Shown here one piece after another: positions 27,312 to 50,277 of a DNA stretch of 64,000 nt; position 1 is the stretch's first letter; each line of letters starts with the position of its first letter. The notes under the pieces are model-generated. The model saw only the letters and a program-made list of their open reading frames with translations. It made no database searches and was not told the origin of the DNA. A program made the position numbers and the translations under genes. Source of the stretch: an uncultured Pseudomonadota bacterium (GTDB lineage: Bacteria > Oederibacteriota > Muellerivitia > Muellerivitales > Muellerivitaceae); assembly GCA_963836235.1 (NCBI GenBank), contig CAWIIP010000002.1, forward strand, positions 1,024,001-1,088,000. Direction: 5' to 3'.

Positions 27312-27329
27312 GGTTCCTCTTTTAAAAGA

Positions 27330-29590: not shown

Positions 29591-32500
29591 TTAGCGAATG
29601 ACCAGTAACTTTGCGATGGAGCGGTGACCATCGACAGTGACGACGATGTAATAGATACCATCCGCTAAAGGCCTGCCCGATTTATCGGTTAGCTCCACCT
29701 TTACTGCTGTGCCTGAAGGCACATTCCAGAAAGTCTCATCCTGCACTTTCCGGAAAGCGATGGTGAAAATCTCCACACGTACATCTCCCAAACCTTGGTA
29801 AGCGGGCGGTAACACACTCACCGTCGGGCCTGTAACCGGGTTGGGGTACACCACCACGCCGGAGCTACCCGTCGGACTAGTCGTAGGAGTTTCGGTTGAT
29901 GTGAAAACAACGGTGGAAGTGGCGGTAACTGTATTCGTAGGCGTGTTGGAAGGCGTTGACGTCACCGTTACGATGGTAATCACCGCCCCGGTCACGGGTA
30001 AACCGCTAAAGAGCACCGCTTGCCCATTCGTTCCGGCCCCGTTTGTCACACTGAACTGGTAGTTCCCTGTCGGCGCGCTATTTGAAAAGTTCACCACCAC
30101 TTGGTAAGTCACCGCACCGTTACTCGGCTGGATGGTCCCGTTAAAATTAAAGGTTGCCGTCGTTCCTCCTGTGAAACTCGCGGTAGAGATAACCGTTCCA
30201 TTGTCCACCAGTGATACGGAAGTGATCCCCGTGGGAGAAGCCCCCGACTCGGTAAGGGTCAAACTGCTCAAAGTAACAGGATTGTTGCCCGGATTGACCA
30301 GTTGAATTTGCTGAACTGATACGTTGGAGGTTCCCGGTATCTGTGAAGAATTGGAGGGTGGGCTTGACCCTTGCGAGGCTTGTACCGTCACTACCGTGGG
30401 AGTGGGAGTCAATGTGATCGTGGAAGTGACGGTATAAGTTGCCGTATTGATCAGGGTATTGGTGGGAGTAGATGTAACCGTTGGAGTCGTAGTTTTAGTT
30501 GGGCTATTAGTGAGTGTGGATGTGGCGGTGGCGCTATTCGTCGGCGTACTCGTCATCGTGGGTGTGATAACCAAGGTATTGGTCGTCGTCGCCGAAGGCG
30601 TGGCAGTGGCAGTACGAGTGGTCGTTGCTGTGGGGCTATTGGTAGGCGTGGCCGTCAGTGTGTTCATGGCCGTATTGGTCGCGGTAGAAGTGGCGGTATT
30701 TGTCGGCGTATCCGTCATCGTGGGGGTGATGACCGATGTATTGGTCGTCGTCACTGAAGGCGTGCCGGTAGCCGTGCGGGTAGTTGTGAAGCTTGGCGTC
30801 GCCGATGAAGTCGAAGTGGCGGTTGAAGTAGGGCTATTGGTGAGCGTGGCCGTCTGAGTGTTCATGGCCGTATTGGTCGCGGTAGAAGTAGTGGTACTGG
30901 TGGGGCTGGAAGTCGTCGTATTCGTCGCCGTATTCGTCCGGGTGACTGTTGCGGTGTTGGATGGGGTTGAGGTGGCGCTATTTGTCAGCGTATCCGTCAC
31001 CGTGGGCGTGATGACCGAGGTATTCGTCGTCGTCGCTGAAGGCGTGCCAGTAGCCGTGCGGGTAGTTGTCGATGTTGTAGTCCCGGACGCGGTTGAAGTG
31101 GTCGTTGCCGTGGGACTATTGGTGGGGGTGGCTGTCAGGGTGTTCATGGCCGTATTGGTCGCGGTAGAAGTAGTGGTACTGGTGGGGCTGGAAGTCGTCG
31201 TGTTCGTCACTGTATTCGTTCGGGTGGCGGTCGCCGTGCCGGTGGGCGTATTGGAAGGCGTTGAGGTCGAAGTGTTCACCACCGTGTTGGTTGAAGTTGA
31301 ACTTGCGGTGCTGGTGGGTGTATTGGTACGGGTCGCAGTCGCGGAGGCCGTGGTAGTACCCGTTGGACTTGAAGTAAGCGTATTAGTCGCTGTATTCGTC
31401 CTAGTCGCCGTGGGGCTGGAGGTAGGGGTTGAACTGGGAGTCGCCGTCGCCGTATTGGCCACAGTGTTAGTCGCTGTTAATGTAGCCGTCTTCGTGGCCG
31501 TAGCCGTCGGGCTTGAGGTGGCAGTCAATGTTGATGTATTGGTGGGACTATTGGTCCTGGTTGCGGTAGGGGTAGAGGTGGACGTATTGGCAACCGTGTT
31601 GGTTGGTGTGGATGTCGCCGTCTTCGTGGCGGTGGCACTGGGACTGTTGGTGGGGGTACTCGTGCGAGTTGCGGTCGGACTATTCGTTCGGGTGAAGGTT
31701 GGAGTAGCGGTAGGCGTCGAACCACTGGACACTGAAGCGACGAAACTGACCACACTTTCGGCCGGTAGGGTATAAGTAAAGCTTCCACCGCTCACCACCA
31801 CTGACGTCTGCTGGACCAGATTCAGGGACGAACTGGTAATCCATGGATAAACCGTGGAGACACTCAGGTCGCTATATTTGAAGGTCTCGTTCTCGGTGGA
31901 GCCGGTATTGCCGTTGATGGCCACGATCACGACCTTGCCCGCGGAAGAGCTGTAATAGGCGGAGACGGAAACTCCCGCCGAAGGCACCTCGGTGGCGCCA
32001 ATGCGCACGTATCCAGGGCGGATGAACTTGCTGTAATTTCCGAGGCAATAAAGGCGGGGGGTGGCGGCGCCGGCACTGGTACAAAGCCCCTCGTCGTCGG
32101 TGTTGATGTTGACCAGCCACCAGTAGCAGAAGGCGTTAAAGTTATGGTCCACGATGCAGTTGTGAAGCAGGCCGGCGTAATAGATGCCGCTGTCGATGTT
32201 GTTGTCACTTGTTTTTTCAGAAATTTCGGTCTCCCAGCTTTCCACTGCGTGTCCGGCGGTGGTGGAGTAGCTGGCGGGCACCGTGTTAGGCCCGCCACCG
32301 TAAAGGTGCATGCCGATGAAACCCACAAAAGAAGCCGCGGCCGAGTCGCCCATGGTGGTGGCGGATAGGGTCAGGTTGTCGGCGAAGGATTCGGGCATCA
32401 TGATGATCGAGGTGCCGAAGCCCGCCGCTTGGAGGTCCGGACCCAGATAGCTCTTGATGTAAGTGTCAAAATTCGCGGGGGACCAAAGGCAAGCATCGTA

Positions 32501-33342: not shown

Positions 33343-33368
33343 GTGGAAAAGTTTTTCGTTCAAACCTG

Positions 33369-35165
33369 TTAGGGTTTTTGGCGAAATTTCTGAGGTGAAA
33401 TTCCCACCTTTTTGCGGAACAAACGGATGAAATAAGAACTTGAGCCGAACCCACAAGTTTTCGCGATTTGCGACACGGGGAGGCTTCCAGTCTTCAAAAG
33501 CCGGCGAGCCTTCTCCAGCCGCAAGTTTTGGAGATAGTTTTCCAATCCCATCCCCGTGTTTTTTTTGAAACGTCGGCTCAGTGTGGAAATGGAAACCTTG
33601 GCCATTCCCGCAAGCCTGGAGATTCGCAAAGATTCTCCAAAATGCCTGTCGGTGTAATCTTTTATCTTCTGGATGGAATAAGCTTCCGCAAGCGCTCCTT
33701 TACCATGCGTCAACTTCAAAAATTTCTCCATCGCCTCTTTAAAGGCCAAAATCATTTCCTGCGTAGTTCCGGTTCCATCCAATGAAAGCGCCAGGCTTTC
33801 GTAAAAGGCCCGCATTTCTTTTTCACCCAAATCGGTTAGGTTTTTCATGGCCTCTACCAAATGGATAAGCCCATACTGCAAATGCCAGCGGATTTCCTCG
33901 GGGTTTTGAAAAGAAAGCGTGAGGACTTCCCGGAGGAATTCGTCCAAGACTGATTCCATTCCTGAAAATGAAGCCGTTTCGAATTGGTGTCTCAAGTCCA
34001 GCAGTAATCTCCTCAATTTCAGGAGGCCTTCCGTTTTTTCATCGCGGGCCGGACTGAAAAAAACCAGTTTCTTTCCGGATTGCCTTCCCAAGTGGAGGGC
34101 CAAGACCGCTTGTCGGTAGGATTCGTTCAGCAGCTCCCCCGGCGCGACAGTTTCCCCGATCCCCACGAGGGCCGGCCCACCTAAAGTTTCCTCCGCAAAT
34201 TTGTGGATGCGTTCGGCAGCTTCCATAACTTCATGGCGGCGTTGGGGTCTGCCCTTGGAGGGATCGGGAGATATGACAAAAACCGCCCCGTAGTTCTCCA
34301 GTTTGCCTCCGACCGACTGCGGGAGACTTCGGGCAAAAGTAAAACTTCGGCGCTGGAACTGGTAAATACGGAGCATCTCCTCGATGGGATCGGTTTTGCG
34401 TTCGGATGGCTTCACTGGTATGGCCGTGATGACGGTGGTGGGAACGCGGGTGATCCCAATTTCAGATCTTACCCATTCCAGTTCTTGAATCTTGATGTTC
34501 CAAGTCGGAGTCGCCTGACGCGTGGGCAACCCCAGAACCCAACTCATCCAAAAGCTGTGGGGGATATGTTTGGAAAAAACATCAACCATAAGTTCCCTAA
34601 TTCGCATTTGGGCCTGTCTATTTTCTTGATGGGTTAAAATCTGGGCGAAAATTTCAAGGGATTCTTGATAGGCGGAAAGAACATCTCCTTCGAGTACCGG
34701 TATTTCCAACATAACTCTAACAAATTCCCGAAATTCCATGTTTTCCGCGGAAGCCGCTTGACCGGTTAGACCTTTCCAACTTTCGCGCAAGTGCGAATAA
34801 GTTAATTCCCTATCCGCAAAAGCCCCCGACAAAAGTGTTCCTAGCCGTTTTTCCTTCTTGCGAATCGGCATGAAGATGTCGAAAAAACCCAGGTTTTCCA
34901 CCAGAAGGGGTTTTCCTTTATTCTTGTTTTCGAAAGAATTGTCGGTCAGCCGGTTCCATTTGCGGACAAAGTTGTATTTTTTTTCAAAATCGAATAGTGA
35001 TTCCAGTCTTTGATGATGGTAAACGGCCGCCCAGATATCCCGAGAATCAGTGGGGGGAACGACAAAACAATTCAAGTCGACGTAATATTTTAAAATGGAA
35101 AGAAAGCCTTCGTATTCCAAAAGGCCTTCAAAGGGCGTGGAAATCTTGGGGGGCCGAAGCGACAT
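33369..35165 (-). CDS. AraC family regulator with large N-terminal sensor region
   Basis: C-terminal double HTH (LSRRFKK..G...YL...RLEKA..LL...IA..CGF....YF.RLFRK..G.SP..FR); central 'VGIGE....L..SYRQA.LAL' CdaR/GGDEF-like segment. Confidence 0.9.
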   Translation of the reverse strand: MSLRPPKISTPFEGLLEYEGFLSILKYYVDLNCFVVPPTDSRDIWAAVYHHQRLESLFDFEKKYNFVRKWNRLTDNSFENKNKGKPLLVENLGFFDIFMPIRKKEKRLGTLLSGAFADRELTYSHLRESWKGLTGQAASAENMEFREFVRVMLEIPVLEGDVLSAYQESLEIFAQILTHQENRQAQMRIRELMVDVFSKHIPHSFWMSWVLGLPTRQATPTWNIKIQELEWVRSEIGITRVPTTVITAIPVKPSERKTDPIEEMLRIYQFQRRSFTFARSLPQSVGGKLENYGAVFVISPDPSKGRPQRRHEVMEAAERIHKFAEETLGGPALVGIGETVAPGELLNESYRQAVLALHLGRQSGKKLVFFSPARDEKTEGLLKLRRLLLDLRHQFETASFSGMESVLDEFLREVLTLSFQNPEEIRWHLQYGLIHLVEAMKNLTDLGEKEMRAFYESLALSLDGTGTTQEMILAFKEAMEKFLKLTHGKGALAEAYSIQKIKDYTDRHFGESLRISRLAGMAKVSISTLSRRFKKNTGMGLENYLQNLRLEKARRLLKTGSLPVSQIAKTCGFGSSSYFIRLFRKKVGISPQKFRQKP

Positions 35166-35290: not shown

Positions 35291-37843
35291 TCACCGAATG
35301 ACAAGCAATTTCGCGATGGAACGGTAACCGTCGACGATAACGACGATGTAATAGACACCATCCGCCAACGGCACCCCCCGTCTGTCGGTGAGCTCCACCT
35401 TTACCGCCATACCCGATGGCACGTTTTGGAAGGTCTCTTCTTGAACTTTCCGGAAGGCTAAGGTGTAAATCTCCACTTGGACATCCTCCAAACCTTGGTA
35501 AGCAGGCGGAAGCACATTGACCATCGGTCCAATAACCGGATTGGGGTAAATCAACAAAACTCGGTTTTCCGCAGGCGTGGGGGTGGCCGACAAGGTCTTT
35601 GTGGGTGTAGTCGAAATTGTTGGAGTATTCGTCTGAGTAAAGGTAAAGGTCGCGCTGTTGGTTCTGGTTGGCGAAACGGTGAGGGAAGCGGTTGGCGACG
35701 ATGAATTTGTCGAGGTAGAAGAAAAGGTGGGTGTGGGTGAAGCCGATGCCGTAACTGTAGGAGACGGGGTTCTCGTGGAGGACCACGTGGGTGTAGTCGA
35801 AGCGGTCGGGGTAGCGGTTGAAGTACCTGTCTTCGTGACTGAGGCCGTCGGGGTTTTAGACGGGGTAAAGCTCAAAGTTGGAGTGATCAAAGCCGTATTC
35901 GTGGGAGTTGAAGTAACTGTGAACGTTCCCGTAGACGTCGGCGTTGTTGAGTCGGTGGAAGTTTCCGAAGGGCTTTCGGTGGCCGTGGAGGTAGGAGTCG
36001 GGCTTAATGTGGCCGTCGCGCTTGAGGTATTGGATGCCGTTGAAGTCATGGAAGATGTGAAGGAAGGCGTTGGCGTAATCAGAAGTGTGTCCGTGGGAGT
36101 CAAGGTGACCGTCGCCGTATAAGTTGTTGTGGAACTGGCCGTTTTGGTCGGGCTAGCCGTAGGGCTATTGGTGGTAGTTGATGTCGCCGTCACGGTACTG
36201 CTGGGGCTGGCTGAGGGTGTGGCTGTCATTGAAGATGTTCCGGTAGAAGTCGGGGTATTTATTAAAGTGTTGGTCATGGTGGCAGTCGCACTCCATGTGG
36301 CAGTTGAACTGAACGTGGATGTAACCGTATTGATCCTCGTCGCGGTAAAGCTGGGCGTATTCAGTAAAGTGTTGGTGGAAGTAAGTGTTGCCGAATTCGT
36401 CGGGGTATTGGTCATCGTCTCTGTGGCACTATGGGTTGCAGTAGCGGTAGCCGTATGAACCTGGGTATTGGTCCAGCTAGCCGTTGGGGTTGAACTAGGG
36501 GTGGCGGAAGCCGTTGAAGTAGAAGTGCTCAAAGGCGTATTGGTTCTTGTAAGTGTAGGCGTTCCCGTGGTCGTAAAAGTCGCCGTAGTTGTTGGGCTTT
36601 GGGTCTGCGTCAGCGTCGCGGTGGCAGTGACGGTTTTGGTTGGCGTGGAAGTAGCGGTATTCATCGGTGTATTAGTACGTGTCGCGGTTGGGCTGTTGGT
36701 GGAGGTGGGGGTTGGGGTTCCAACCGAGGTACATGTGGTAACCACCGCATTATCCCGGGTAAAAAGATAGTCTCGGACCTCGCCCGCTGGAGCGAACCAC
36801 ATGCTGTTGTTCCCCGAAACCGCGAAATTCGTGTTCAAGTAGTTCAGCAGATCCTGAAGGGTTGTTTGGTTGGTGCTGTAGGCGTCGGCGGCCGCTCCGC
36901 TGCCCTGTGAAACGCTGTGGGTATACTCGATAAGCCAGGTGGAACGGCTTTGACCCGCCGCAGAGGCGGCTAGCGACTTCCAGGCTGTATCATCCGTTCC
37001 GAACATCCCGCCCCGCTGGAGCTGGAAGGGCAAAGGGGGCGTATCCACGTAATTATAGGATCCTCCCCCGCACTCCGCGGAGAGGAGATAGGAAGGTGGA
37101 TATCCGGAACAAGTGTTCGCCGAGGAATTCTCGTAAGGAAAAACCATTTGAGTGACGTTATATCCAGGAAAGTATTTCAGCAAAAGGGGCTCGTTATTGG
37201 CCAACTCTGGATCGATATCCGTGGCGGTACCATTGCAGGTGAGTGGGTTGGGGTGGTCGTAGGAATGGTCGAACATGTCCCAGCCCGCCGCCCTCAAGTT
37301 TTGCAAGCAAGTCCAGTTCATAAAATAACTACCGCTCCCGGATGCCCCTCCCCCATTGGCCCAGGAGCCTACAACCGCTTCCCCTGCCCTCCAGCCCAAC
37401 GCGTCCAAAAGAGGTTTACCATAGTCATATTGGGTCAACCGATTGTCGTCAAAGGTAAGGGAATAGGCCCAATGGAAGTTGTTGTAGAGGGTGGCTTTGG
37501 TAGCGGCACCTGTGCCGCCGGAGGTCCAGTTCACGGCGGTGACAACGATGGATTTTCCCGTCGTGGTGAAGGTGGCTGTTCCGGCTGAGGAACTATAGGT
37601 GGCCGAAACCGCGGCCCCATCGGCCGTGACGGCTACCGAAGCGCAGGTGCCCACGTTGACAATCAACGTGATTTTCTCGTAGTTGCACTGGGTAGGAACG
37701 GCTGAATAATTAACCTGCACACAATAAGTTTGGTTGGCCGCCAACCCCTTAGAAGCGCTTACAAAGCACAATAAAAAAAAGCTGACTTGCAAGGCATTAA
37801 AAAAGAAGGGAAGTTTTAAGAAAGTTTTATTGAATTTGTTCAT
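35291..37843 (-). CDS. Secreted polysaccharide deacetylase-like (CE4/NodB) protein + stalk + conserved tail
   Basis: SLTFDD and HSYDH NodB motifs, FPYE. Start moved to ATG 37843 (MNKFNK..., signal peptide) because the ORF-track start overlaps the upstream gene. Confidence 0.78.
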   Translation of the reverse strand: MNKFNKTFLKLPFFFNALQVSFFLLCFVSASKGLAANQTYCVQVNYSAVPTQCNYEKITLIVNVGTCASVAVTADGAAVSATYSSSAGTATFTTTGKSIVVTAVNWTSGGTGAATKATLYNNFHWAYSLTFDDNRLTQYDYGKPLLDALGWRAGEAVVGSWANGGGASGSGSYFMNWTCLQNLRAAGWDMFDHSYDHPNPLTCNGTATDIDPELANNEPLLLKYFPGYNVTQMVFPYENSSANTCSGYPPSYLLSAECGGGSYNYVDTPPLPFQLQRGGMFGTDDTAWKSLAASAAGQSRSTWLIEYTHSVSQGSGAAADAYSTNQTTLQDLLNYLNTNFAVSGNNSMWFAPAGEVRDYLFTRDNAVVTTCTSVGTPTPTSTNSPTATRTNTPMNTATSTPTKTVTATATLTQTQSPTTTATFTTTGTPTLTRTNTPLSTSTSTASATPSSTPTASWTNTQVHTATATATHSATETMTNTPTNSATLTSTNTLLNTPSFTATRINTVTSTFSSTATWSATATMTNTLINTPTSTGTSSMTATPSASPSSTVTATSTTTNSPTASPTKTASSTTTYTATVTLTPTDTLLITPTPSFTSSMTSTASNTSSATATLSPTPTSTATESPSETSTDSTTPTSTGTFTVTSTPTNTALITPTLSFTPSKTPTASVTKTGTSTATPTASTTPTWSSTRTPSPTVTASASPTPTFSSTSTNSSSPTASLTVSPTRTNSATFTFTQTNTPTISTTPTKTLSATPTPAENRVLLIYPNPVIGPMVNVLPPAYQGLEDVQVEIYTLAFRKVQEETFQNVPSGMAVKVELTDRRGVPLADGVYYIVVIVDGYRSIAKLLVIR

Positions 37844-37958
37844 GATCCCTCTTCCAGAATCCCTTTCAAAGTTCATTGTGAATTGTTTTAAAAATTTCAC
37901 CAAAGCTGGTATTGAAGGTCGGTGCTTCAGGAAACCCACAGCCGGATGATTCCCTGGA

Positions 37959-40900: not shown

Positions 40901-41150
40901 TGCGCATCAGGGAAAGTCCCGCATGGCCGTTGGTGTTATCTACCGCCCAGAGGGTCGAGGCATAGGGGGAAAGATTGCTAGCCGCGTTCCAGGCGCTGGC
41001 CGCCCCGAACCCGCGGATAATTTGGTTGGTCTGGGTCGCGTCCACGGTGCAAGTACCTGCCCAAACTCCGGTAGCGCTTACAAGCATGGTCAGGACCAGA
41101 AAGTTAAAAACGATTTTTTGAGCCACAATAATCCTCAGGTTTTTCGTCAA
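37959..41150 (-). CDS. Second secreted GH30 hydrolase + stalk + unassigned domain + conserved tail
   Basis: IRGFGAAS, WSPP, QNEPD, HLYGGG, WETE, YSKFVRP. Confidence 0.88.
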   Translation of the reverse strand: MTKNLRIIVAQKIVFNFLVLTMLVSATGVWAGTCTVDATQTNQIIRGFGAASAWNAASNLSPYASTLWAVDNTNGHAGLSLMRTRIDPTDTGSGSAWNSEAGPMTLAKSVNPNITIWSTEWSPPATYKGNNSVDGGGSNGNLTSTATFLGAASGSPNSADTGYASYLVRYIQYIQNSFGVTLYAVSCQNEPDWDPTYEAAIWNAGQFDVFTGAFHSALQTAGLSTKIMITESFGDRLPLAATTMNDATNAPFVNIIAGHLYGGGPNSLSSGGFSHLTNQDNWETEMSDVSGAGPDNSMTSGLVEAGWVHNSMTTGLMDAFHHWWIWGTDNSALITSSGISKKLMVLGQYSKFVRPSFYRMGATTVPTGGVSVTAYKNTNTSAPATVVIVAINGNSSTTSQTFTFNGVNVTSVVPWVTDNNNNLVQEAAVAVSGNSFTYNLTGPSVTSFVGVNSSSSSTNTFTPTATRTNTPANTPTSTPTATRTNSPTNTATSTASRTASSTPTNTVANTATFTPTATRTNSPTSTQTSSPTSTTTSSPTATATKTASSTMTSTVANTATPTPSSTPTSSSTASRTNTVTNTTTSSPTSTTTSTATNTAMNTLTATPTNSPTATTTSTASGTTTSTTTRTATGTPSATTTNTSVITPTVTDTLTNSATSTPSNTATVTRTNTVTNTTTSSPTSTTTSTATNTAMNTLTATPTNSPTSTATSTSSTTPTFTTTRTATGTPSATTTNTLVITPTMTSTPTNSATATSTLTNSPTKTTTPTVTSTPTNTLINTATYTVTSTITLTPTPTVVTVQASQGSSPPSNSSQIPGTSNVSVQQIQLVNPSNNPVTLSSLTLTESGASPTGITSVSLVDNGTVISTASFTGGTTATFNFNGTIQPSNGAVTYQVVVNFSNSAPTGNYQFSVTNGAGTNGQAVLFSGLPVTGAVITIVTVTSTPSNTPTNTVTATSTVVFTSTETPTTSPTGSSGVVVYPNPVTGPTVSVLPPAYQGLGDVRVEIFTIAFRKVQDETFWNVPSGKPVTVELTDRRGAPLADGVYYIVVTVDGHRSTGKLLVIR
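37989..39427. repeat. ~1.44 kb near-identical copy of 43326-44764; part also matches ~29718-30600
   Basis: Comparison by eye at offsets +5337 and -8368; the ORF track shows an identical 73 aa antisense ORF in all three copies. Confidence 0.9.
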
Positions 41151-43295: not shown

Positions 43296-46200
43296 TCAGC
43301 CGAGAATCAGGAGTTTTCCAATAGCGCGGTGCCCGTCAACGGTGACAACAATGTAATAGACCCCGTCCGCCAAGGGCGCCCCACGTCGGTCAGTCAGCTC
43401 CACCGTTACGGGTTTACCCGACGGCACGTTCCAGAAAGTCTCATCCTGCACTTTCCGGAAAGCGATGGTGAAAATCTCCACACGTACATCTCCCAAACCT
43501 TGGTAAGCGGGCGGTAACACACTCACCGTCGGGCCTGTAACCGGGTTGGGGTACACCACCACGCCGGAGCTACCCGTCGGACTAGTCGTAGGAGTTTCGG
43601 TTGATGTGAAAACAACGGTGGAAGTGGCGGTAACTGTATTCGTAGGCGTGTTGGAAGGCGTTGACGTCACCGTTACGATGGTAATCACCGCCCCGGTCAC
43701 GGGTAAACCGCTAAAGAGCACCGCTTGCCCATTCGTTCCGGCCCCGTTTGTCACACTGAACTGGTAGTTCCCTGTCGGCGCGCTATTTGAAAAGTTCACC
43801 ACCACTTGGTAAGTCACCGCACCGTTACTCGGCTGAATGGTCCCGTTAAAATTAAAGGTTGCCGTCGTTCCTCCTGTGAAACTCGCGGTAGAGATAACCG
43901 TTCCATTGTCCACCAGTGATACGGAAGTGATCCCTGTGGGAGAAGCCCCCGACTCGGTAAGGGTCAAACTGCTCAAAGTAACCGGATTGTTACTAGGATT
44001 GACCAGTTGAATTTGCTGAACTGATACGTTGGAGGTTCCCGGTATCTGTGAAGAATTGGAGGGTGGGCTTGACCCTTGCGAGGCTTGTACCGTCACTACC
44101 GTGGGAGTGGGAGTCAATGTGATCGTGGAAGTGACGGTATAAGTTGCCGTATTGATCAGGGTATTGGTGGGAGTAGATGTAACCGTTGGAGTCGTAGTTT
44201 TAGTTGGGCTATTAGTGAGTGTGGATGTGGCGGTGGCGCTATTCGTCGGCGTACTCGTCATCGTGGGTGTGATAACCAAGGTATTGGTCGTCGTCGCCGA
44301 AGGCGTGCCGGTAGCCGTGCGAGTAGTTGTGAAGGTTGGCGTCGTTGATGAAGTCGAAGTGGCGGTTGAAGTAGGGCTGTTAGTGGGTGTGGCCGTCAGT
44401 GTGTTCATGGCCGTATTGGTCGCCGTAGAAGTAGTGGTACTGGTGGGGCTGGAAGTCGTCGTATTCGTCACTGTATTCGTTCGGGTGACTGTTGCGGTGT
44501 TGGATGGGGTTGAGGTGGCGCTATTTGTCAGCGTATCCGTCACCGTGGGCGTGATGACCGAGGTATTCGTCGTCGTCGCTGAAGGCGTGCCAGTAGCCGT
44601 GCGGGTAGTTGTCGATGTTGTAGTCCCGGATGCGGTTGAAGTGGTCGTTGCCGTGGGACTATTGGTGGGGGTGGCTGTCAGGGTGTTCATGGCCGTATTG
44701 GTCGCCGTAGAAGTAGTGGTACTGGTGGGGCTGGAAGTCGTCGTATTCGTCACTGTATTCGTTCGGGTGACTGTCGCGGTGTTGGATGGGGTTGAGGTGG
44801 CGCTATTTGTCAGCGTATCCGTCACCGTGGGCGTGATGACCGAGGTATTAGTCGTCGTTGCTGAAGGCGTGCCAGTAGCCGTGCGAGTAGTTGTTGATGT
44901 TGGAGTCCCGGATGCGGTTGAAGTAGTGGTACTGGTAGGGCTGGAAGTCGTCGTGTTCGTCACTGTATTCGTTCGGGTGGCTGTCGCCGTGCCGGTGGGC
45001 GTATTGGAAGGCGTTGAAGTCAGTGTGTTCACCACCGTGTTGGTTGAAGTCGAGCTTGCGGTGCTGGTGGCTGTATTGGTACGGGTTGCCGTCGGAGTAG
45101 CTGTGGCAGTACCTGTTGGACTTGAAGTCACCGTATTCGTCGCGGTATTCGTCCTAGTCGACGTGGGGCTGGCCGTAGGGGTTGAACTGGGGGTTGCCGT
45201 CGCCGTATTAGCCACGGTGTTCGTCGCTGTCAATGTTGCCGTTTTTGTCGCCGTAGCCGTGGGGCTTGAAGTAGCGGAAGCGGTTGGGCTGGAAGTTTGG
45301 GTATTAGTCGGTGAATTGGTCCTGGTAGCCGTCGGGCTTGAGGTGGCAGTCAATGTTGCCGTATTGGTGGGACTATTGGTCCTGGTTGCGGTAGGGGTGG
45401 AGGTGGCCGTACTGGCAACCGTGTTGGTTGCAGTGGATGTAGCCGTCTTTGTCGCCGTAGCCGTGGGACTGTTGGTAGGGGTACTCGTGCGAATCGCGGT
45501 TGGACTATTCGTTCGAGTGAAGGTTGGAGTAGCGGTAGGCGTGCTAGTGGGTCCAGAGGAACTAGAGCCAGGAATAACGATCAGATCCATTTCACTGGGT
45601 TGCAGGCTCACCGTAAAGGTCGTTCCGGTCGTTTGGGCCACCCCTGCGATGGAAGCAATAGCGCTAGGCGCCGGATTGGCGGTGCCGTTAATCTGAAGTC
45701 CAGTTACCTCTTGTGGCGCGCCGGAGGAACTGCTTCCTTGGGGAAGCATGACCCAAGCTTGACCGGAGGCCGCAGGGGTGAACCCCGACACAGTGATTGT
45801 GGTGGCCATGGTGGCGGTTGGACTGTTATTCACCATGAAAAGGGTGAGGTTGCCTGAAGCGTTCATCGCCGCATAGGCATTCACGTTCGTGGTGCTACTG
45901 GTGCAAGTCACCATATTGCTGCCGAACTTGCCCGACAGCATAGGAAAGACATAGTAATTTGGAAATGGAGCGTAGGAAGTCGTGTTAACGAAACCATAAT
46001 CGGGGGTACCTCCATTGAGGGTGGCCCAAAGGTTTGCGCCGATCCAGCCGTTCTTTGCCATTTCCATAATCCATTCGGAACAGAACATGGCGTTCACGTA
46101 CTCGTTGGTTTGAGCATCGGGGCCAAGGCTGCAGTTGTATTCAGTCATGAAGTATTTCACTTGTCCGACATAAGAAGCACCTAAGGCGGAAGACACAATG

Positions 46201-47057
46201 GAATTCAAGCTGGCTGTTTGAACCGCGACGGTGGCGGGGTAACTGAGAATTTTAGTATCGGTGGCCTGGCCCGCAGCGACACCGGCGGCCAGGGGGTAAT
46301 TGTGAATGATCAGGAAGTCAGGCACGACACCAGCGGCTTTGGCAGCCGTAAGCATGTTCGGTGTCCAGTTGGTATAATCCGTTGAACCGGGGGACGCCAC
46401 AGCACCGATTTTAATGGTAGAGTCGATGGCTTTCATGCCGTTGTAATAATCGGCAAAATATTGGCCGTAAACCGTTCCCGTCAAAGTGCTACCGGTCGAG
46501 CCCTGGCCTCCCTGTTCCCAATTGCCGTAAACTTCATTACCGACTTCCCAATAAGTCGCCTTGGCCGACCCCGTATTGGTCAGGTTCCAGGTGACCCACG
46601 CTTCCGCCAGGCTGACCGCTTGTGCGTGGGTGAATTGGGTGCTGGTGCCGGATCCCGAGGCGCCGCTGCACCAGTAACCGCTGAGATTCACAATGGGCTG
46701 TAGGGTTCCACCGAATGTTTGCAAAAAGGTGATGAACTGGGGGGTAGTAGCGGCACCCGTATCATTGCAAACGAGATTATTCCAATCCACGATGTCGGCT
46801 TCGGATCCGCCCGGCCACCGGATGTTTCGGCAGCCCGAAACCTGCATAGCGGTGTTATAAGTGGCGACCGTGCCGTTGTTGGCTCCGTTGTAATACTGGG
46901 CGTTGTTGCCGTAAATCGTGTTCGGAATAGTAACAATGGTCGTTCCAGCATTCACGGTGATGCTGGCCTGAGCAAATAAACTGGGAATGTTTATCCCAAA
47001 AAATAGAATGGTTAGGCCCGGCAAGGCCTTTTTTAAAATCCACATTTCCTTTTTCAA
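43296..47057 (-). CDS. Secreted clan GH-A hydrolase (GH51/alpha-L-arabinofuranosidase-like) + stalk + unassigned domain + conserved tail
   Basis: IRWPGGS, YWEVGNEVYG.WE, IKIGA, HNYP, MTEYN. Exact family (GH51/GH44/GH79-like) uncertain. Confidence 0.75.
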   Translation of the reverse strand: MKKEMWILKKALPGLTILFFGINIPSLFAQASITVNAGTTIVTIPNTIYGNNAQYYNGANNGTVATYNTAMQVSGCRNIRWPGGSEADIVDWNNLVCNDTGAATTPQFITFLQTFGGTLQPIVNLSGYWCSGASGSGTSTQFTHAQAVSLAEAWVTWNLTNTGSAKATYWEVGNEVYGNWEQGGQGSTGSTLTGTVYGQYFADYYNGMKAIDSTIKIGAVASPGSTDYTNWTPNMLTAAKAAGVVPDFLIIHNYPLAAGVAAGQATDTKILSYPATVAVQTASLNSIVSSALGASYVGQVKYFMTEYNCSLGPDAQTNEYVNAMFCSEWIMEMAKNGWIGANLWATLNGGTPDYGFVNTTSYAPFPNYYVFPMLSGKFGSNMVTCTSSTTNVNAYAAMNASGNLTLFMVNNSPTATMATTITVSGFTPAASGQAWVMLPQGSSSSGAPQEVTGLQINGTANPAPSAIASIAGVAQTTGTTFTVSLQPSEMDLIVIPGSSSSGPTSTPTATPTFTRTNSPTAIRTSTPTNSPTATATKTATSTATNTVASTATSTPTATRTNSPTNTATLTATSSPTATRTNSPTNTQTSSPTASATSSPTATATKTATLTATNTVANTATATPSSTPTASPTSTRTNTATNTVTSSPTGTATATPTATRTNTATSTASSTSTNTVVNTLTSTPSNTPTGTATATRTNTVTNTTTSSPTSTTTSTASGTPTSTTTRTATGTPSATTTNTSVITPTVTDTLTNSATSTPSNTATVTRTNTVTNTTTSSPTSTTTSTATNTAMNTLTATPTNSPTATTTSTASGTTTSTTTRTATGTPSATTTNTSVITPTVTDTLTNSATSTPSNTATVTRTNTVTNTTTSSPTSTTTSTATNTAMNTLTATPTNSPTSTATSTSSTTPTFTTTRTATGTPSATTTNTLVITPTMTSTPTNSATATSTLTNSPTKTTTPTVTSTPTNTLINTATYTVTSTITLTPTPTVVTVQASQGSSPPSNSSQIPGTSNVSVQQIQLVNPSNNPVTLSSLTLTESGASPTGITSVSLVDNGTVISTASFTGGTTATFNFNGTIQPSNGAVTYQVVVNFSNSAPTGNYQFSVTNGAGTNGQAVLFSGLPVTGAVITIVTVTSTPSNTPTNTVTATSTVVFTSTETPTTSPTGSSGVVVYPNPVTGPTVSVLPPAYQGLGDVRVEIFTIAFRKVQDETFWNVPSGKPVTVELTDRRGAPLADGVYYIVVTVDGHRAIGKLLILG
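44223..45266. repeat. ~1.04 kb near-identical copy of 47869-48912; contains a 282-bp internal tandem unit
   Basis: Comparison by eye at offset +3646; gtgttcatggccgtattggtcgccgtagaag recurs at 44401 and 44683. Confidence 0.88.
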
Positions 47058-47143: not shown

Positions 47144-47157
47144 TGAAACCGGTTTCA
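47144..47157. promoter_or_regulatory. Perfect LacI/CcpA-type operator palindrome
   Basis: TGAAACCGGTTTCA upstream of the GH51-like gene; related TGGTAGCGGTTACA at 47199-47212. Confidence 0.75.
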
Positions 47158-47412
47158 GTTATTACCTTTAAATACCCACTTAAACAATACTAAATGAGTG
47201 GTAGCGGTTACAATTTTACCGGACTATCGGAACAAATGGTAGGAATCGAAGCCTGTCGTTTCACGGTCAACTTTTCCCATTTTCCACCTACTTACCAACA
47301 TGAAAGCAATCTCTTTTATCTTTTAGGAACACATAGTCGCACTAATCAAACCTCAGCCGAAGAAGGTGCACTCAACAATAAAATTTTCGACTTTAAAAAA
47401 TCTAGCTTGGCG

Positions 47413-50277
47413 TTAGTGGATAACCAAGAGTTTGGTGATGGAACGGTGCCCATCGACAGTGACGATTATGTAATAGACTCCATCAGCCAAAAGCCTCCCC
47501 GATCTATCGGTGAGTTCCACCGTGACCGGCACGCCCGAAAGCACGTTCCGGAATATCACATCCTGCACTTTCCGGAAGGCGAGGGTGAATATCTCCACAC
47601 GCACATCCGAAGAGCCTGAATAAGCAGGTGGAAGCACATTAACCGTCGGTCCATTAACCGGGTTGGGATAAACCACCACACCGGAGTGGCCCGTCGGGCT
47701 AGCCGTAGGGGTTTCTGTCGAAGTAAAAGAGCTAGAAGAAGTGGATGTTGCCGTAGAGGTCGCCGTATTGACTATGGTGTTGGTGGGAGTAGATGTAACC
47801 GTTGGAGTGGTGGTCTTGGTTGGGCTGCTGGTGGGTGTGAAGGTGGTGGTCGGGGTAGCCGTACTTGAGGATGTGGCGGTGGCGCTATTCGTCGGCGTAC
47901 TCGTCATCGTGGGTGTGATAACCGAGGTATTGGTCGTCGTCGCCGAAGGCGTGCCGGTAGCCGTGCGAGTAGTTGTGAAGGTTGGCGTCGTTGATGAAGT
48001 CGAAGTGGCGGTTGAAGTAGGGCTGTTAGTGGGTGTGGCCGTCAGTGTGTTCATGGCCGTATTGGTCGCCGTAGAAGTAGTGGTACTGGTGGGGCTGGAA
48101 GTCGTCGTATTCGTCACTGTATTCGTTCGGGTGACTGTTGCGGTGTTGGATGGGGTTGATGTGGCGCTATTTGTCAGCGTATCCGTCACCGTGGGCGTGA
48201 TGACCGAGGTATTCGTCGTCGTCGCTGAAGGCGTGCCAGTAGCCGTGCGGGTAGTTGTCGATGTTGTAGTCCCGGATGCGGTTGAAGTGGTCGTTGCCGT
48301 GGGACTATTGGTGGGGGTGGCTGTCAGGGTGTTCATGGCCGTATTGGTCGCCGTAGAAGTAGTGGTACTGGTGGGGCTGGAAGTCGTCGTATTCGTCACT
48401 GTATTCGTTCGGGTGACTGTCGCGGTGTTGGATGGGGTTGAGGTGGCGCTATTTGTCAGCGTATCCGTCACCGTGGGCGTGATGACCGAGGTATTAGTCG
48501 TCGTTGCTGAAGGCGTGCCAGTAGCCGTGCGAGTAGTTGTTGATGTTGGAGTCCCGGATGCGGTTGAAGTAGTGGTACTGGTAGGGCTGGAAGTCGTCGT
48601 GTTCGTCACTGTATTCGTTCGGGTGGCTGTCGCCGTGCCGGTGGGCGTATTGGAAGGCGTTGAAGTCAGTGTGTTCACCACCGTGTTGGTTGAAGTCGAG
48701 CTTGCGGTGCTGGTGGCTGTATTGGTACGGGTTGCCGTCGGAGTAGCTGTGGCAGTACCTGTTGGACTTGAAGTCACCGTATTCGTCGCGGTATTCGTCC
48801 TAGTCGACGTGGGGCTGGCCGTAGGGGTTGAACTGGGGGTTGCCGTCGCCGTATTAGCCACGGTGTTCGTCGCTGTCAATGTTGCCGTTTTTGTCGCCGT
48901 AGCCGTGGGGCTGTCGGTAGGGGTACTGGTGCGGGTGACCGTGGGAGTGAAGGTAGAAGTACTGGTAGCTGCGGCAGGGGTGAAAGTCTTGGTGGGCGTA
49001 TTCGTGGGGCCACAGGCTGGGAAGGCCACATCATCCGCCCCCGCCATGGCCGCATTATAGGTAGTCACTGCCGCCGTATTGGAGGGAGCTTTACCGTTAA
49101 TTAGACAGTTGCAATCGAAAGTCACTCCCTGAGTATTGAAGACGTCAAAGACTTTAGAACCCGTCAGCGTACAGGCGGCAAACAATACATTGGAAACTGG
49201 CGCCTGCGGCAGGCCCCAAACGATCCCCACGTTGGCGGTTCCGGTCGCGGCTTGGCTGGCGGTGACATTTTGGAAAGTGATGTTGTCCCAATAGGGAGTG
49301 GTACTGTTAGCCGCCGAACCCGTATCCGTTGAGGGGCTGGAGGGGACCGTGGGGTAGTAGCTGTACATCAAGATCGGATTGACCATGATGTTAGACATCG
49401 TAATATTGGAATAAGTGATGTTTGAGGTGATGCCACCTTCTGTGTTGTTGGATTTGAGCCTTAAGCCGTATTGAGTCCCATTGAAGACGCAATTGTTGAC
49501 CAGCACATTACTCACTCCGCCGGAGGTGATGCTGCCGATGGAAAGCCCATGGCCAGTCCCGAAGGTGCAACCCTGGACCGTGACTCCATTACAGGCGTTG
49601 GAACCGCCGATTTGGACTACGTCGTCCCCGTCGCTGATATAGCAATTTTGGATATTTACGTTAGTACCGCGCAGGTCAATGCCATCGGTATTGGGCGAGG
49701 GCCAGGGCGCAGTGATGCTCAAAGCCGAGGCCAGAATGTTGGTGCCGTTTCCTAAAAATTGAATATGGAATTTGGGTGAATTTTGAACCGTGATTCCCGA
49801 AACCGTGACTCCCTTGCATCCTGTGAGCTCGATCATGGCGGGAGGGCGGTTATCAGTTCCCCCGCCGTTGAAATAGTTCCACCAGGCAAGCCCTTGTCCA
49901 TCCATGACTCCGCTGCCATTAATGGTGATATTAGTCAAACCCGAACCATAAAGGAAATCGGTGCTGACGGGGAAAGTTCCCATGGCGGTCATCTGCAGGG
50001 TGGCCCCAGCAGAGAGTTGAAAAGTCATGTTGCTTTTGAGGGTGACAGGGCCGCTAAAGAAAGTACCGGCCGGAACCACGACCGTCCCGCCACTTCCCAC
50101 GGCGTTGATGGCGGCCTGAATTGCGGCAGCGTTGTCGGCGCTGCCCGTTGTGGCGTTATAAGGAGCGGAGGTGATAGTGATCGTTTGGGCGGAAGCGGAA
50201 GCGGCGCAAAAGAAAATAAATAAACCTAGTACCCGGTAAAATCGAGTCGATCCAGAAACGTTTTCAATTTTCTTCAT
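47413..50277 (-). CDS. Secreted GH28 polygalacturonase-like + stalk + conserved tail
   Basis: NTDG, GDD, GHGLSIGS and RLK catalytic motifs. Confidence 0.92.
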   Translation of the reverse strand: MKKIENVSGSTRFYRVLGLFIFFCAASASAQTITITSAPYNATTGSADNAAAIQAAINAVGSGGTVVVPAGTFFSGPVTLKSNMTFQLSAGATLQMTAMGTFPVSTDFLYGSGLTNITINGSGVMDGQGLAWWNYFNGGGTDNRPPAMIELTGCKGVTVSGITVQNSPKFHIQFLGNGTNILASALSITAPWPSPNTDGIDLRGTNVNIQNCYISDGDDVVQIGGSNACNGVTVQGCTFGTGHGLSIGSITSGGVSNVLVNNCVFNGTQYGLRLKSNNTEGGITSNITYSNITMSNIMVNPILMYSYYPTVPSSPSTDTGSAANSTTPYWDNITFQNVTASQAATGTANVGIVWGLPQAPVSNVLFAACTLTGSKVFDVFNTQGVTFDCNCLINGKAPSNTAAVTTYNAAMAGADDVAFPACGPTNTPTKTFTPAAATSTSTFTPTVTRTSTPTDSPTATATKTATLTATNTVANTATATPSSTPTASPTSTRTNTATNTVTSSPTGTATATPTATRTNTATSTASSTSTNTVVNTLTSTPSNTPTGTATATRTNTVTNTTTSSPTSTTTSTASGTPTSTTTRTATGTPSATTTNTSVITPTVTDTLTNSATSTPSNTATVTRTNTVTNTTTSSPTSTTTSTATNTAMNTLTATPTNSPTATTTSTASGTTTSTTTRTATGTPSATTTNTSVITPTVTDTLTNSATSTPSNTATVTRTNTVTNTTTSSPTSTTTSTATNTAMNTLTATPTNSPTSTATSTSSTTPTFTTTRTATGTPSATTTNTSVITPTMTSTPTNSATATSSSTATPTTTFTPTSSPTKTTTPTVTSTPTNTIVNTATSTATSTSSSSFTSTETPTASPTGHSGVVVYPNPVNGPTVNVLPPAYSGSSDVRVEIFTLAFRKVQDVIFRNVLSGVPVTVELTDRSGRLLADGVYYIIVTVDGHRSITKLLVIH

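Follow-up and report, generated by a model that had tools for sequence, protein, structure and literature searches.

Judged by analogy, the nearest known case to the genes described here is that of the P. gingivalis gingipains. For RgpA/Kgp and HagA, combinatorial modularity and gene conversion via homologous recombination have been described (PMC5266723). [quoted passage not shown] Gene conversion within multi-module genes, with some segments homogenised and others reshuffled, has also been described for the GRINS of polyketide synthases, which are dedicated GC-skewed elements of biosynthetic megasynthases (PMC8256042), unlike the secreted-enzyme locus considered here. Other likenesses concern architecture. 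Bacteroidota type-A cargo (TIGR04183/PF18962) are, like the proteins of this locus, large secreted enzymes with a beta-sandwich of ~85 aa at the extreme C-terminus; polymorphic toxins and adhesin cassettes similarly combine one conserved trafficking part with many functional parts through sharp joints; and the Pro/Thr-rich linkers of secreted cellulases (Cellulomonas fimi CenA/Cex), which are tens of residues long and are seen as domain-shuffling joints, provide a comparable hydroxy-amino-acid-rich joint between a catalytic domain and a C- or N-terminal non-catalytic module.

The locus lies in a window of 64,000 nt (the whole stretch of DNA that was analysed) from a genome, G000, of a probable candidate-phylum FCPU426 bacterium, uncultured and from soil; the phylum is described as uncultured and rarely sampled in those parts of the literature that deal with it (PMC10434106, PMC7031533). 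On the evidence of its predicted gene content (Table 1), the locus is one for degradation of plant cell wall (pectin/hemicellulose). The focal enzymes have a common plan, consisting of a Sec signal peptide, a catalytic head, a Thr-rich linker of 350-490 aa and a T9SS-type CTD, and in three of the genes (GH30a, GH30b and GH51-like) a beta-sandwich of ~147 aa, termed domain X, is inserted before the CTD. The signal peptides, recognized by inspection of translations only, have a basic start, a hydrophobic stretch and a small-residue site (e.g. AWAQ, VWAG, LFAQ or ASAQ). Two AraC regulators are the ORFs found between the focal enzyme genes. The CE4 ORF, if read from a GTG start, overlaps the end of GH30b, but inspection of the translation suggests that the true start is likely to be the ATG near 37843, which opens a signal-peptide-like stretch. 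The locus differs from the gingipain genes in that the heads are CAZymes, in a soil bacterium of another phylum; the common DNA is mainly Thr-rich linker, plus a predicted cohesin/CBM-like domain and the CTD; and the homogenisation recurs across genera.

Table 1. Features of the CAZyme locus (positions within the window)
Feature	Position	Strand	Description
GH30a gene	29591..33079	(-)	1162 aa; ORF; Pfam Glyco_hydro_30 E 2.1e-9; signal peptide + GH30 head ~aa 1-443, Thr-rich linker 444-892, domain X 893-1039, short linker, CTD 1078-1162
AraC-family regulator 1	33369..35165	(-)	598 aa; Pfam HTH_18 + HTH_AraC; paralogue of regulator 2
CE4 (polysaccharide deacetylase) gene	35291..38047	(-)	linker ~411 aa + CTD, without domain X
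GH30b gene	37959..41150	(-)	1063 aa; head, linker aa 441-793, domain X 794-940, CTD 979-1063
AraC-family regulator 2	41432..43240	(-)	602 aa; ORF, Pfam
GH51-like gene	43296..47057	(-)	1253 aa; head ~aa 1-494, linker 495-983, domain X 984-1130, CTD 1169-1253
GH28 polygalacturonase-type gene	47413..50277	(-)	954 aa; head, linker of 455 aa, CTD aa 870-954; Pfam Glyco_hydro_28 E 4.3e-52
Beta-helix (pectate-lyase-like) gene	50540..53746	(-)	linker of 361 aa; CTD of second tail type
GH43 + CBM6 gene	53747..56941	(-)	linker of 413 aa; CTD of second tail type
Rhamnogalacturonan-lyase-like (PL4) gene	59537..63496	(-)	domain X + CTD
Block A, GH30b copy	37989..39427	(-)	aa 575-1054: 219 aa of linker, domain X, short linker, CTD minus last 9 codons
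Block A, GH51-like copy	43326..44764	(-)	aa 765-1244
Block B, GH51-like copy	44223..45266	(-)	aa 598-945, wholly inside linker
Block B, GH28 copy	47869..48912	(-)	aa 456-803
Block C, GH30a copy	29724..30602	(-)	aa 826-1119: linker end, domain X, short linker, first ~42 aa of CTD
Block C, GH30b copy	38092..38970
T9SS-type CTD, GH51-like gene	43299..43553	(-)	85 aa; tail HMM; weak Pfam Por_Secre_tail + FlgD_ig; fold matches
Homologous tails (CTDs)	37962-38216; 29594-29848; 47416-47670; 35294-35548
Domain X, GH51-like gene	43668..44108	(-)	profile search
Domain X, GH30b	38331-38771
Domain X, GH30a	29963-30403
282-nt tandem repeat, GH51-like linker	44232..44924	(-)	2.5 copies, 90% match
Equivalent 282-nt repeat arrays	30683-31286; 38895-39427; 47878-48570

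A first-pass annotation of the window had claimed three long matches between these genes, and all three proved to be real, correctly placed and far above chance. The two copies of block A differ at 1/1439 bases (39408, G/A), those of block B at 2/1044 nt and those of block C at 6/879 nt; by BLAST, block A is 99.59% identical over 1457 nt, the wider match around block C (29591-30619 vs 37959-38987) is 95.4% identical over 1032 nt, and a further GH30b/GH28 match (38883-39427 = 47866-48410) is 99.3% identical over 545 nt. Synonymous sites are identical within the blocks, as had been claimed, and the borders are abrupt, so that in ungapped register block A is flanked by 12 differences in 30 nt at the gene 3' side and by 14 in 33 nt beyond the other end, and between block C and the stop codon 38 of 133 nt differ; the borders of block B are equally sharp. 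The description of the genes as mosaics is likewise supported: the blocks are confined to linker/tail DNA, and the GH51-like gene has block A in common with GH30b and block B in common with GH28. The GH28 gene does, as noted previously, lack the domain then put at 140 aa, a profile search finding no copy of domain X in it, and its tail is more diverged (77-79% protein identity to the other tails, dS 0.87-1.43). The beta-helix gene lies outside the near-identical blocks, and the cassette of the PL4 gene has ~57% protein identity to the focal cassette.

The heads had been described as non-homologous or diverged, and per-segment dS values agree that they are unrelated or old. The GH30a and GH30b heads have 44.6% amino acid identity and a saturated dS of 1.63 (NG86), vs a dS of 0.164 (NG86) over domain X + CTD of the same two genes; for GH30b vs the GH51-like gene, the latter region has a dS of 0.024 (NG86). 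The two AraC regulators provide an internal control that is not homogenised, having 46% amino acid identity and saturated dS, so that homogenisation does not extend beyond the cassettes. The heads are old and have orthologues in related genera: those of the GH51-like head are found in 5 relatives (62-79% identity) and those of the GH28 head in 6 (53-85% identity, single copy per genome), with partial synteny (GH28 -> GH51-like -> GH30) in G001, a member of the same genus. The label ‘GH51-like’, kept here as a gene name, did not survive, since this head has no Pfam family and its sole sequence match among solved structures is a weak one to GH39 beta-xylosidases (4ekj_A, E 2e-5).

The segment that had been called a stalk is indeed long, but is more correctly a low-complexity Thr/Ser/Pro-rich linker (Thr 35-44%, Ser 14-19%, Pro 8-11%) that includes a 282-nt unit (94 aa) repeated in tandem 1.9-2.5 times. 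To our knowledge, linkers of 350-490 aa with ~37% Thr are not usual in described T9SS cargo. They are unlike those of CenA/Cex in this length, in their internal 94 aa repeats, in being followed by a secretion-sorting domain and in that the linker DNA is near-identical between unrelated enzymes. Domain X, modelled with AF2 (pLDDT 81-92 over residues 11-150), is aligned by VIA-align with sialidase N-terminal domains (6mnj_A, Z 11.4, rmsd 3.0, 125 residues; 8gn6_A, Z 10.2) and with cohesins (2vo8_A, Z 9.0; 3ul4_A, Z 8.6), for the latter of which Foldseek gives a TM of 0.51-0.54. The model thus points to a cohesin/CBM-like beta-sandwich by fold, a fold that does not imply function, and the likeness to cellulosome cohesins and to Bacteroidota sialidase N-terminal domains is at fold level: a Pfam search up to E 10 gave no family match for domain X except a chance-level one to LTD, and none to cohesins. 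Unlike cellulosome systems, G000 has no sequence-level cohesin and no dockerin (PF00404), whereas 2/14 control genomes were positive for the latter.

An HMM built from seven tails of the locus detects 45 C-terminal copies in the genome, which has 79 CTD-bearing ORFs in all (45 with the focal tail type) and 47 matches to TIGR04183. The tails differ from those of Bacteroidota type-A cargo in that none of the five focal CTDs reaches the curated cut-off of either PF18962 or TIGR04183; on PF18962, where 27 bits are required, the focal cassette attains 17.0 bits (E 0.0072), and it has no match in NCBIfam at E 0.01 or better; the homologous tail of the beta-helix gene reaches 25.3 bits on TIGR04183, where the cut-off is 23. 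In comparisons of the CTDs dN is lower than dS, and the tail is therefore under purifying selection. The AF2 model of the CTD (residues 196-270, block pLDDT 70-90) was aligned by VIA-align with the mirolase CTD 8qb1_A (Z 8.2, rmsd 2.8, 78 residues) and with CTDs of T9SS substrate complexes (8glk_D, Z 7.3; 8gl6_D, Z 7.2), Z scores of 7-8 being only moderately above the background of this tool, and Foldseek matched it to the RgpB CTD 5ag8_A (E 2e-4). On the evidence of these models the CTD is a beta-sandwich folded like the T9SS CTDs of known structure. Among candidate components of the secretion system, an ORF of 2029 aa is a SprA/Sov homologue (226.6 bits on TIGR04189, cut-off 200). The host is not a member of the Bacteroidota, and in a further difference from the type-A systems the PorU profile is matched only through its own C-terminal ~100 positions (CTD), and nothing PorV-like exceeds 59 bits, vs a threshold of 250; profiles for GldM and PorP/SprF found no match in the genome and were silent in control genomes too.

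In the relatives compared (8 regions from 7 genomes), comparable blocks are present in 5/8 regions and 5/7 genomes (G003, 1339 nt, 99.6%; G011, 1373 nt, 99.85%; G001, 2048 nt, 96.9%; G009, 301 nt, 98%; G010, 289 nt, 94.8%), and the G005, G011b and G002b regions (3/8) have none. Several of the relatives' contigs end inside linkers. Orthologous cassettes of G000 and G001 have ~72% DNA identity. In G000-G003 orthologues, heads are 55-69% identical and CTDs 44-45%, with dN of 0.09-0.23 for heads and 0.52-0.65 for CTDs (GH28, CE4, PL and GH30a); paralogous heads are 25-45% identical, with paralogous CTDs at dS 0-0.57, and within G003 the GH30a and GH30b heads are 43% identical and their CTDs 100% (dS 0.015). 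Paralogous segments within a genome are therefore closer than orthologous ones while the flanking heads follow orthology, which is the pattern that defines concerted evolution. In a tree of 34 CTDs, the genome label requires 11 changes vs a shuffled mean of 22.3 (0/200 shuffles as low) and the head label 16 vs 15.8, with the five focal tails of G000 falling in a single group (support 93/83). With groups set by head orthology, and the tail ends already viewed before testing, the AU test rejects a single clade for GH28 tails (p-AU 8.8e-37) and GH30b tails (p 3.4e-60) and does not reject one for GH30a tails (p 0.11). The single-copy GH28 head is found with five different tail types, each resembling those of neighbours in the same genome. 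Tails thus cluster by genome, not by head. Fixed head-tail pairings with uniform divergence in relatives, which the first-pass annotation had named as the contrary pattern, were not seen; pairings vary between genera, and relatives of the cassette from metagenomes follow heads of a dozen families or more.

Repeats were also compared across G000 as a whole. The pairs that reach 500 nt and 95% identity number 115, with 82/115 multi-copy and IS-like; 19/33 of the non-IS pairs join two different CTD-bearing genes and 5/33 lie within one such gene. CTD-bearing genes make up 7.3% of the genome. Some identical pairs are >1 Mb apart or on different contigs, and these distant pairs could be recent duplications rather than conversions. 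On contig C4, two genes separated by 30 kb have an identical 2061-nt head but differ in signal peptide and tail.

We consider that the observations are best explained by concerted evolution in which gene conversion acts on the linker/tail modules carried by T9SS-like cargo, with a probability of about 0.78; on the best reading, linker/tail DNA is near-identical because recombination copies these parts between genes. Ongoing gene conversion or recombination, as originally proposed, best accounts for identity that is confined to linker/tail and for cassettes that are homogenised separately in each genome. In our working model, the cargo would be exported via a T9SS-like translocon, after which the linker may hold the enzyme off the cell surface, or tether it. 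The DNA of linker, domain X and CTD would be similar enough among paralogues for homologous recombination, and non-reciprocal recombination (gene conversion) would repeatedly copy tracts of ~0.9-2 kb between them, the tract ends falling mostly in the linker and sometimes within the CTD. As a result of this copying, the C-terminal modules would evolve in concert within each genome, and in the longer term heads would be re-paired with other tails. A plausible benefit is that all cargo is matched to one secretion/attachment machinery, or that modules are easily exchanged, but homogenisation may also be incidental to the length and similarity of the low-complexity DNA. The further suggestion that new heads are fitted to an export chassis is supported only in part: the 2061-nt head pair and the many head families point to modular exchange, but no new head is seen arriving in the locus, where the heads are old and roughly syntenic with those of relatives.

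It is important that the contribution of assembly is considered, as repeats may have been collapsed or mis-joined, or paralogues made identical by consensus polishing. The assembly is of metagenome type (5 contigs), and short-read polishing of a long-read assembly could inflate paralogue identity. The public sequence consists of low-depth short-read contigs from three runs of one study, possibly of the source sample, and these bridge only one block border (37988/37989) and break at or near others (e.g. 39424, 44753), as expected of a repeat in the graph, where linkage is not given; one of them joins 31457 to 48383 via 24 other letters. However, a public contig covering 37956-39093 crosses the block A 3' border with no difference, and two repeats, one of ~1053 nt (at least 10 copies) and one of ~1.7 kb (~6 copies), are retained in the assembly with every copy in its own context at 99.5-100% identity, so that repeats of block size were resolved. 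The blocks, moreover, have unique flanks on both sides, keep frame and encode parts of complete proteins, and similar blocks (94.8-99.85%) occur in genomes of varied genera and assembly quality. An artefact is accordingly quite improbable. Recent duplication with domain shuffling, in which a cassette or head is pasted in single events and homogenisation is not ongoing, would suit the C4 gene pair, the several identical 3' cassettes that lie on different contigs or >100 kb apart and the occurrence of cassette relatives behind many head families. Block lengths and borders nevertheless differ for each gene pair, and A, B and C overlap in a nested fashion, so several independent events would be needed; homogenisation of these gene families has taken place independently in several genera, and the range of identities (95%, 99.3%, 99.8% and 99.93%) is suggestive of events repeated through time. 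We regard duplication alone as unlikely, while noting that the two readings are not exclusive, both being homologous/illegitimate recombination at module joints.

A dedicated diversification system, akin to polymorphic toxins or antigenic variation and drawing by programmed exchange on a silent cassette store, would be in keeping with the modular architecture, the sharp borders and the many paralogues. Genomic matches of at least 150 nt to the cassette, however, all lie in the CAZyme locus of the window or in full-length CTD-bearing genes elsewhere on contig C2, with no orphan, silent or promoterless copy; the ORFs listed for the locus (at least 150 or at least 200 aa) include no recombinase, retroelement or immunity-like small gene; the six block borders inspected have no motif in common; and the parts that vary are CAZymes of an ordinary housekeeping kind, whose orthologues are conserved. 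We consider such a system very unlikely. The analogy with polymorphic toxins that had been drawn earlier fails on defining features, there being no immunity gene logic and no orphan or silent cassette among the matches to the cassette: the constant part is C-terminal here, so that polarity is reversed, it is the constant part that is homogenised, no store of variable parts is drawn upon, and the heads are conserved rather than fast-evolving. Selection acting alone, through strong constraint on cassette protein or mRNA, is compatible with the purifying selection on the CTD. Protein constraint is unable to fix synonymous sites over 1.4 kb, however, nor does it account for abrupt borders; the low-complexity linker, although the least constrained part, lies within the blocks, and the orthologous cassettes of G001 are far from identical. 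Selection without recombination is refuted by the pattern at synonymous sites and is scarcely credible.

Gene conversion of linker/tail modules has practical consequences. Under concerted evolution, the tails and linkers of such genes are unusable for orthology or phylogeny, similarity over the C-terminal half will connect enzymes that are unrelated in annotation, and short-read assemblies will be broken or mis-joined at such blocks. The locus is also a clear case from nature in which gene conversion at the level of modules keeps secretion/anchor parts uniform across unrelated enzymes, and its natural head/stalk/CTD joints are usable for engineering secreted or surface-displayed enzymes. For the FCPU426 bacteria, it suggests that enzymes acting on plant polymers may be deployed on Thr-rich stalks of unusual length, as cargo of T9SS-like type. 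A more speculative possibility, which we put forward tentatively, is that the very long Thr-rich linker DNA in the FCPU426 family is a lineage-wide recombination joint for the whole T9SS-type secretome (~80 genes here), through which heads and stalk/anchor modules are continually exchanged and homogenised. The cell surface would then bear a brush of different polysaccharide-degrading enzymes, their glycosylated stalks being uniform and co-evolving and domain X serving them all for docking or glycan binding. If true, such a display would represent an evolvable alternative to cellulosomes and Bacteroidota PULs.

All genes of the region are carried on the minus strand. The window is positions 1024001-1088000 of contig C2 in a 3.97 Mb genome (G000; five contigs, numbered with the prefix C; 99.4 % complete). 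The Pfam families found, together with the GH53 and rhamnogalacturonan-lyase-like genes upstream, therefore define the locus as a pectin/hemicellulose degradation cluster. The head (catalytic part) of the ‘GH51-like’ gene had no family in the Pfam search and, when compared with solved structures, matched GH39 beta-xylosidases alone and weakly (4ekj_A, E 2e-5).

Genes of the locus in reading order from the GH43+CBM6 gene to the GH30a gene, two genes upstream of these, and the near-identical blocks between gene pairs (window positions)
Feature	Position	Strand	Remark
GH43+CBM6 gene	53747-56941	-	Pfam
Beta-helix, pectate-lyase-like gene	50540-53746	-	Pfam
GH28 gene	47413-50277	-	Pfam
‘GH51-like’ gene	43296-47057	-	Head without Pfam family
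AraC regulator	41432-43240	-	Pfam
GH30b gene	37959-41150	-	Pfam
CE4 gene	35291-38047	-	Pfam
Second AraC regulator	33369-35165	-	Pfam
GH30a gene	29591-33079	-	Pfam
GH53 galactanase gene	57097-59514	-	Upstream of GH43+CBM6
Rhamnogalacturonan-lyase-like gene	59537-63496	-	Upstream, beyond GH53
Block A	37989-39427 (GH30b aa 575-1054) and 43326-44764 (GH51-like aa 765-1244)		1 difference in 1439 nt
Block B	44223-45266 (GH51-like aa 598-945) and 47869-48912 (GH28 aa 456-803)		2 differences in 1044 nt
Block C	29724-30602 (GH30a aa 826-1119) and 38092-38970 (GH30b aa 727-1020)		6 differences in 879 nt

The longest CE4 ORF begins with GTG and overlaps the final 89 nt of GH30b; its true start is more likely an internal ATG near 37843, where signal-peptide-like sequence begins. 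The GH53 galactanase has a C-terminal catalytic domain (aa 474-781) preceded by some 470 aa without a Pfam family, and it lacks the C-terminal domain that its neighbours have. The two AraC-family regulators are paralogues of about 600 aa with a long, sensor-like N-terminal part, each directly upstream of a GH30 gene, a pairing that suggests an old duplicated unit. The locus is adjoined by a respiratory gene set (23367-29225) comprising a 944 aa multi-haem cytochrome c protein, split cytochrome b genes and a Rieske protein whose N-terminal membrane part is unusually long.

The enzymes share one order of parts: a signal-peptide-like N-terminus, as judged by inspection of the translations, then the catalytic head, then a low-complexity linker rich in Thr (35-44 %), Ser (14-19 %), Pro (8-11 %) and Ala (8-12 %). 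The main linker, not counting domain X and the short linker, is approximately 353 aa long in GH30b, 411 aa in CE4, 449 aa in GH30a, 455 aa in GH28 and 489 aa in the GH51-like gene, and a 282-nt (94 aa) unit is repeated in tandem in the linkers in 1.9-2.5 copies. Long open frames on the plus strand (30858-31775, 38815-40029, 44152-45696, 47741-49060 and 52076-53641) coincide exactly with the linkers and, rather than genes, most likely represent artefacts of the codon bias there. In GH30a, GH30b and the GH51-like gene the linker is followed by a domain of about 147 aa, here called domain X, which occurs in 13 tail-bearing proteins of the genome, always directly before the tail, and in three copies in one protein of 2124 aa. 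The domain X sequence found no family in Pfam, and in the ESM Atlas it matched only unnamed clusters at 0.92-0.93 and one cluster with BNR_assoc_N in 15 % of its members, a weak lead only as to its identity. An AlphaFold2 model that spans domain X, the short linker and the C-terminal domain (CTD), built from a 15-sequence alignment (mean pLDDT 77.8), consists of two beta-sandwiches with a disordered stretch between them (residues 151-190). Modelled domain X matches the N-terminal beta-sandwich of sialidases (6mnj_A, Z 11.4, rmsd 3.0 over 125 residues; 8gn6_A, Z 10.2) and also cohesins (2vo8_A, Z 9.0; Foldseek TM 0.51-0.54); a dockerin search of the genome found none.

A homologous CTD of about 85 aa ends all seven enzymes, and a genome-wide search with an HMM of these seven tails gives 45 C-terminal copies. 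The modelled CTD matches T9SS C-terminal domains (8qb1_A, Z 8.2; 8glk_D, Z 7.3; 8gl6_D, Z 7.2) and, by Foldseek, the RgpB CTD (5ag8_A). By sequence, the focal tails fall under the curated cut-offs (PF18962, 17 bits vs 27), and the tail of the beta-helix gene, which is homologous to them, passes TIGR04183 (25.3 bits, cut-off 23), a family with 47 matches in the genome. A 2029 aa ORF (C1:510625-516711) matches the Sov/SprA translocon family TIGR04189 when the whole protein is compared with NCBIfam (226.6 bits, cut-off 200) and no family in Pfam. This ORF has a Thr/Ser-rich stretch behind its signal peptide, and its neighbours (region C1:503900-519100) are a 1557 aa fn3-containing protein and a LytTR-type two-component pair. 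For the other components, PorV-like matches were below threshold, the PorU match was limited to PorU's own CTD, and searches for PorP/SprF and GldM gave no match in this genome or in the control genomes. The CTD fold, the TIGR04183 matches and the SprA homologue together make it reasonable to infer that the enzymes would be exported by a T9SS-like route.

The first-pass annotation had reported near-identical stalk and tail DNA under unrelated heads, and all three of its matches proved exact. Block A comprises 219 aa of linker, domain X, the short linker and the CTD without its last nine codons; block B is linker only; and block C runs from the linker end through domain X and the short linker into the first 42 or so aa of the CTD. 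Divergence is immediate beyond every border; from the end of block C to the stop codon, for instance, there are 38 differences in 133 nt. Four of the six borders fall in linker DNA, the other two inside the CTD. Inspection by eye of 40 nt on each side of six borders showed no shared motif. The near-identity of the focal cassette (linker, domain X and CTD DNA) is restricted to the locus, the next best matches in the genome being 72-76 % identical.

The chief weakness is that support for the blocks comes from the assembly and short contigs rather than from long reads; polishing could inflate the identities between them. The public reads (three runs from one study) all gave short, low-depth contigs, which over 29000-48999 reproduce pieces of the sequence at 99-100 % identity and are too short to span any block; stretches without contig cover were taken as no evidence. 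With a border counted as bridged when at least 31 letters lay on both sides, only 37988/37989 was bridged (contig 37956-39093); contigs beginning at 39424 and 44753 and one finishing at 44252 missed this rule. One public contig links 31457 in the GH30a linker to 48383 in that of GH28 through 24 other letters, and could come from a strain whose linkers are arranged differently or be a graph artefact in repeated DNA. However, polishing would not make the borders, the reading frames or the recurrence across genera, and the multi-copy IS-like repeats sit apart in their own contexts, so that repeats of this size (1-1.7 kb) were evidently told apart in the assembly. We regard the shared cassettes as a real feature.

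The heads are old. Those of GH30a and GH30b have 44.6 % protein identity (dS 1.63), as against a dS of 0.164 for their domain X and CTD; for GH30b and the GH51-like gene the latter value is 0.024, wholly due to the last codons. Paralogous heads of 25-45 % identity have CTDs with a dS of 0-0.57. The two AraC regulators interspersed with the enzymes, paralogues of old date (46 % aa identity, saturated dS), are not homogenized, showing that homogenization does not reach adjoining paralogous DNA. Orthologues of the GH51-like head occur in 5 of 20 related genomes (62-79 % identity), all in long ORFs (701-1188 aa), and the GH28 head has a single match per genome in six relatives (53-85 %). The order GH28, GH51-like, GH30-type is retained in a genome of the same genus (G001), in which the GH51-like orthologue and the GH30-type gene have 2048 nt in common at 96.9 %; DNA identity between the cassettes of the two genomes is only about 72 %.

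Blocks between different genes (at least 250 nt at 90 % identity or more) were present in five of the eight regions examined in seven related genomes, each from a different genome. Besides the G001 pair given above, these were blocks of GH30a and GH30b orthologues in G003 (1339 nt at 99.6 %; another pair, 883 nt at 90.8 %), of the GH51-like orthologue and its neighbour in G011 (1373 nt at 99.85 %), and shorter ones in G009 (301 nt at 98 % and 260 nt at 96.5 %) and G010 (289 nt at 94.8 %); by the same thresholds the G005, G011b and G002b regions had none. Between G000 and G003 the orthologous heads of GH28, CE4, PL and GH30a differ by a dN of 0.09-0.23 and the attached CTDs by 0.52-0.65. In a tree of 34 tails, from which five below 40 bits on the tail HMM (G010_18002, two from G011a, two from G011b) and three ORFs lacking a tail match (G003_1016991, G002a_361 and G002b_3, one ending at a contig end) were left out, tails grouped by genome (11 changes vs a shuffled mean of 22.3; 0/200 shuffles as low) and not by head (16 vs 15.8; 232/300 as low). 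The five focal tails formed one group (support 93/83) adjoining the G001 tails. That the GH28-orthologue tails form one clade was rejected by AU test (p 8.8e-37), as it was for those of the GH30b orthologues (p 3.4e-60); for GH30a one clade was not rejected (p 0.11). The pairing of heads with tails varies too: the G001 GH28 orthologue has a tail of the PL/GH43 type, and the GH51-like orthologues of G003 and G011 have an entirely different tail class.

Across the genome, 115 repeat pairs (500 nt or longer, 95 % identity or more) were found, 82 of them from multi-copy IS-like families; among the other 33, 19 link two different CTD-bearing genes and five lie within one such gene. The 79 CTD-bearing ORFs make up 7.3 % of the genome. 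The blocks mostly adjoin gene 3' ends, and some partners are on different contigs. Four large ORFs (1372-1892 aa) with another TIGR04183 tail subtype (C1:297636-299976, C2:254404-256744, C2:260181-260983 and C2:1432978-1434376) have 3' cassettes of 0.8-2.3 kb in common at 97.6-100 % identity; these are on separate contigs or over 1 Mb from one another, and homogenization thus reaches beyond neighbours. Two genes 110 kb apart, with GH5-type and GH8-type heads according to precomputed Pfam of listed proteins, are 99.0 % identical over their last 1041 nt (C2:984896-985936 and C2:1095761-1096801), including 19 nt past the ORF end. The reverse case is a pair 30 kb apart (C4:630518-632578 and 660675-662735) with an identical 2061-nt head and differing signal peptides, linkers and CTDs; this head, of about 690 aa, appears BNR/beta-propeller-like from its repeated motifs. 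Repeats of about 1053 nt (at least 10 copies) and 1.71 kb (about six), 99.5-100 % identical (e.g. C1:94392-95444 and C2:357045-358097), are probably insertion sequences, and a 1035-nt repeat copy (C2:826943-827977) overlaps the 5' part of a CTD gene.

Concerted evolution by gene conversion has a textbook signature, and it is seen here in the synonymous identity, the abrupt and pair-specific borders, the nested blocks of graded identity, the old orthologous heads and the independent homogenization in several genera; we consider the mechanism reasonably clear. The modules that evolve in this way are the linker, domain X and CTD in a T9SS-like cargo gene family. The earlier proposal of mosaic genes under ongoing recombination is supported. 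Its further suggestion, that new heads are thereby fitted to an export chassis, is not shown at this locus; module exchange in the lineage is nevertheless supported by the copied 2061-nt head and by the many heads on related cassettes. Indeed, the 122 cassette relatives in public protein collections carry heads of GH5, GH8, GH9, GH16, GH18, GH30, GH43, CE4, lyase, expansin-like and other types. The likeness drawn to polymorphic toxins fails on the defining features of those systems, and among described cases the P. gingivalis gingipain/HagA family comes closest (PMC5266723). Cassette relatives occur at nine public loci, eight under the title ‘candidate division FCPU426 bacterium’, an uncultured phylum to which this genome very probably belongs and which two reports describe as rare and poorly sampled (PMC10434106, PMC7031533). 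Homogenized linker/CTD cassettes, whether in CAZymes or in FCPU426, were not described in the full-text literature searched, which lay outside subscription journals and supplements. The finding is one of linker and CTD homogenization, probably by gene conversion, in a little-known phylum.
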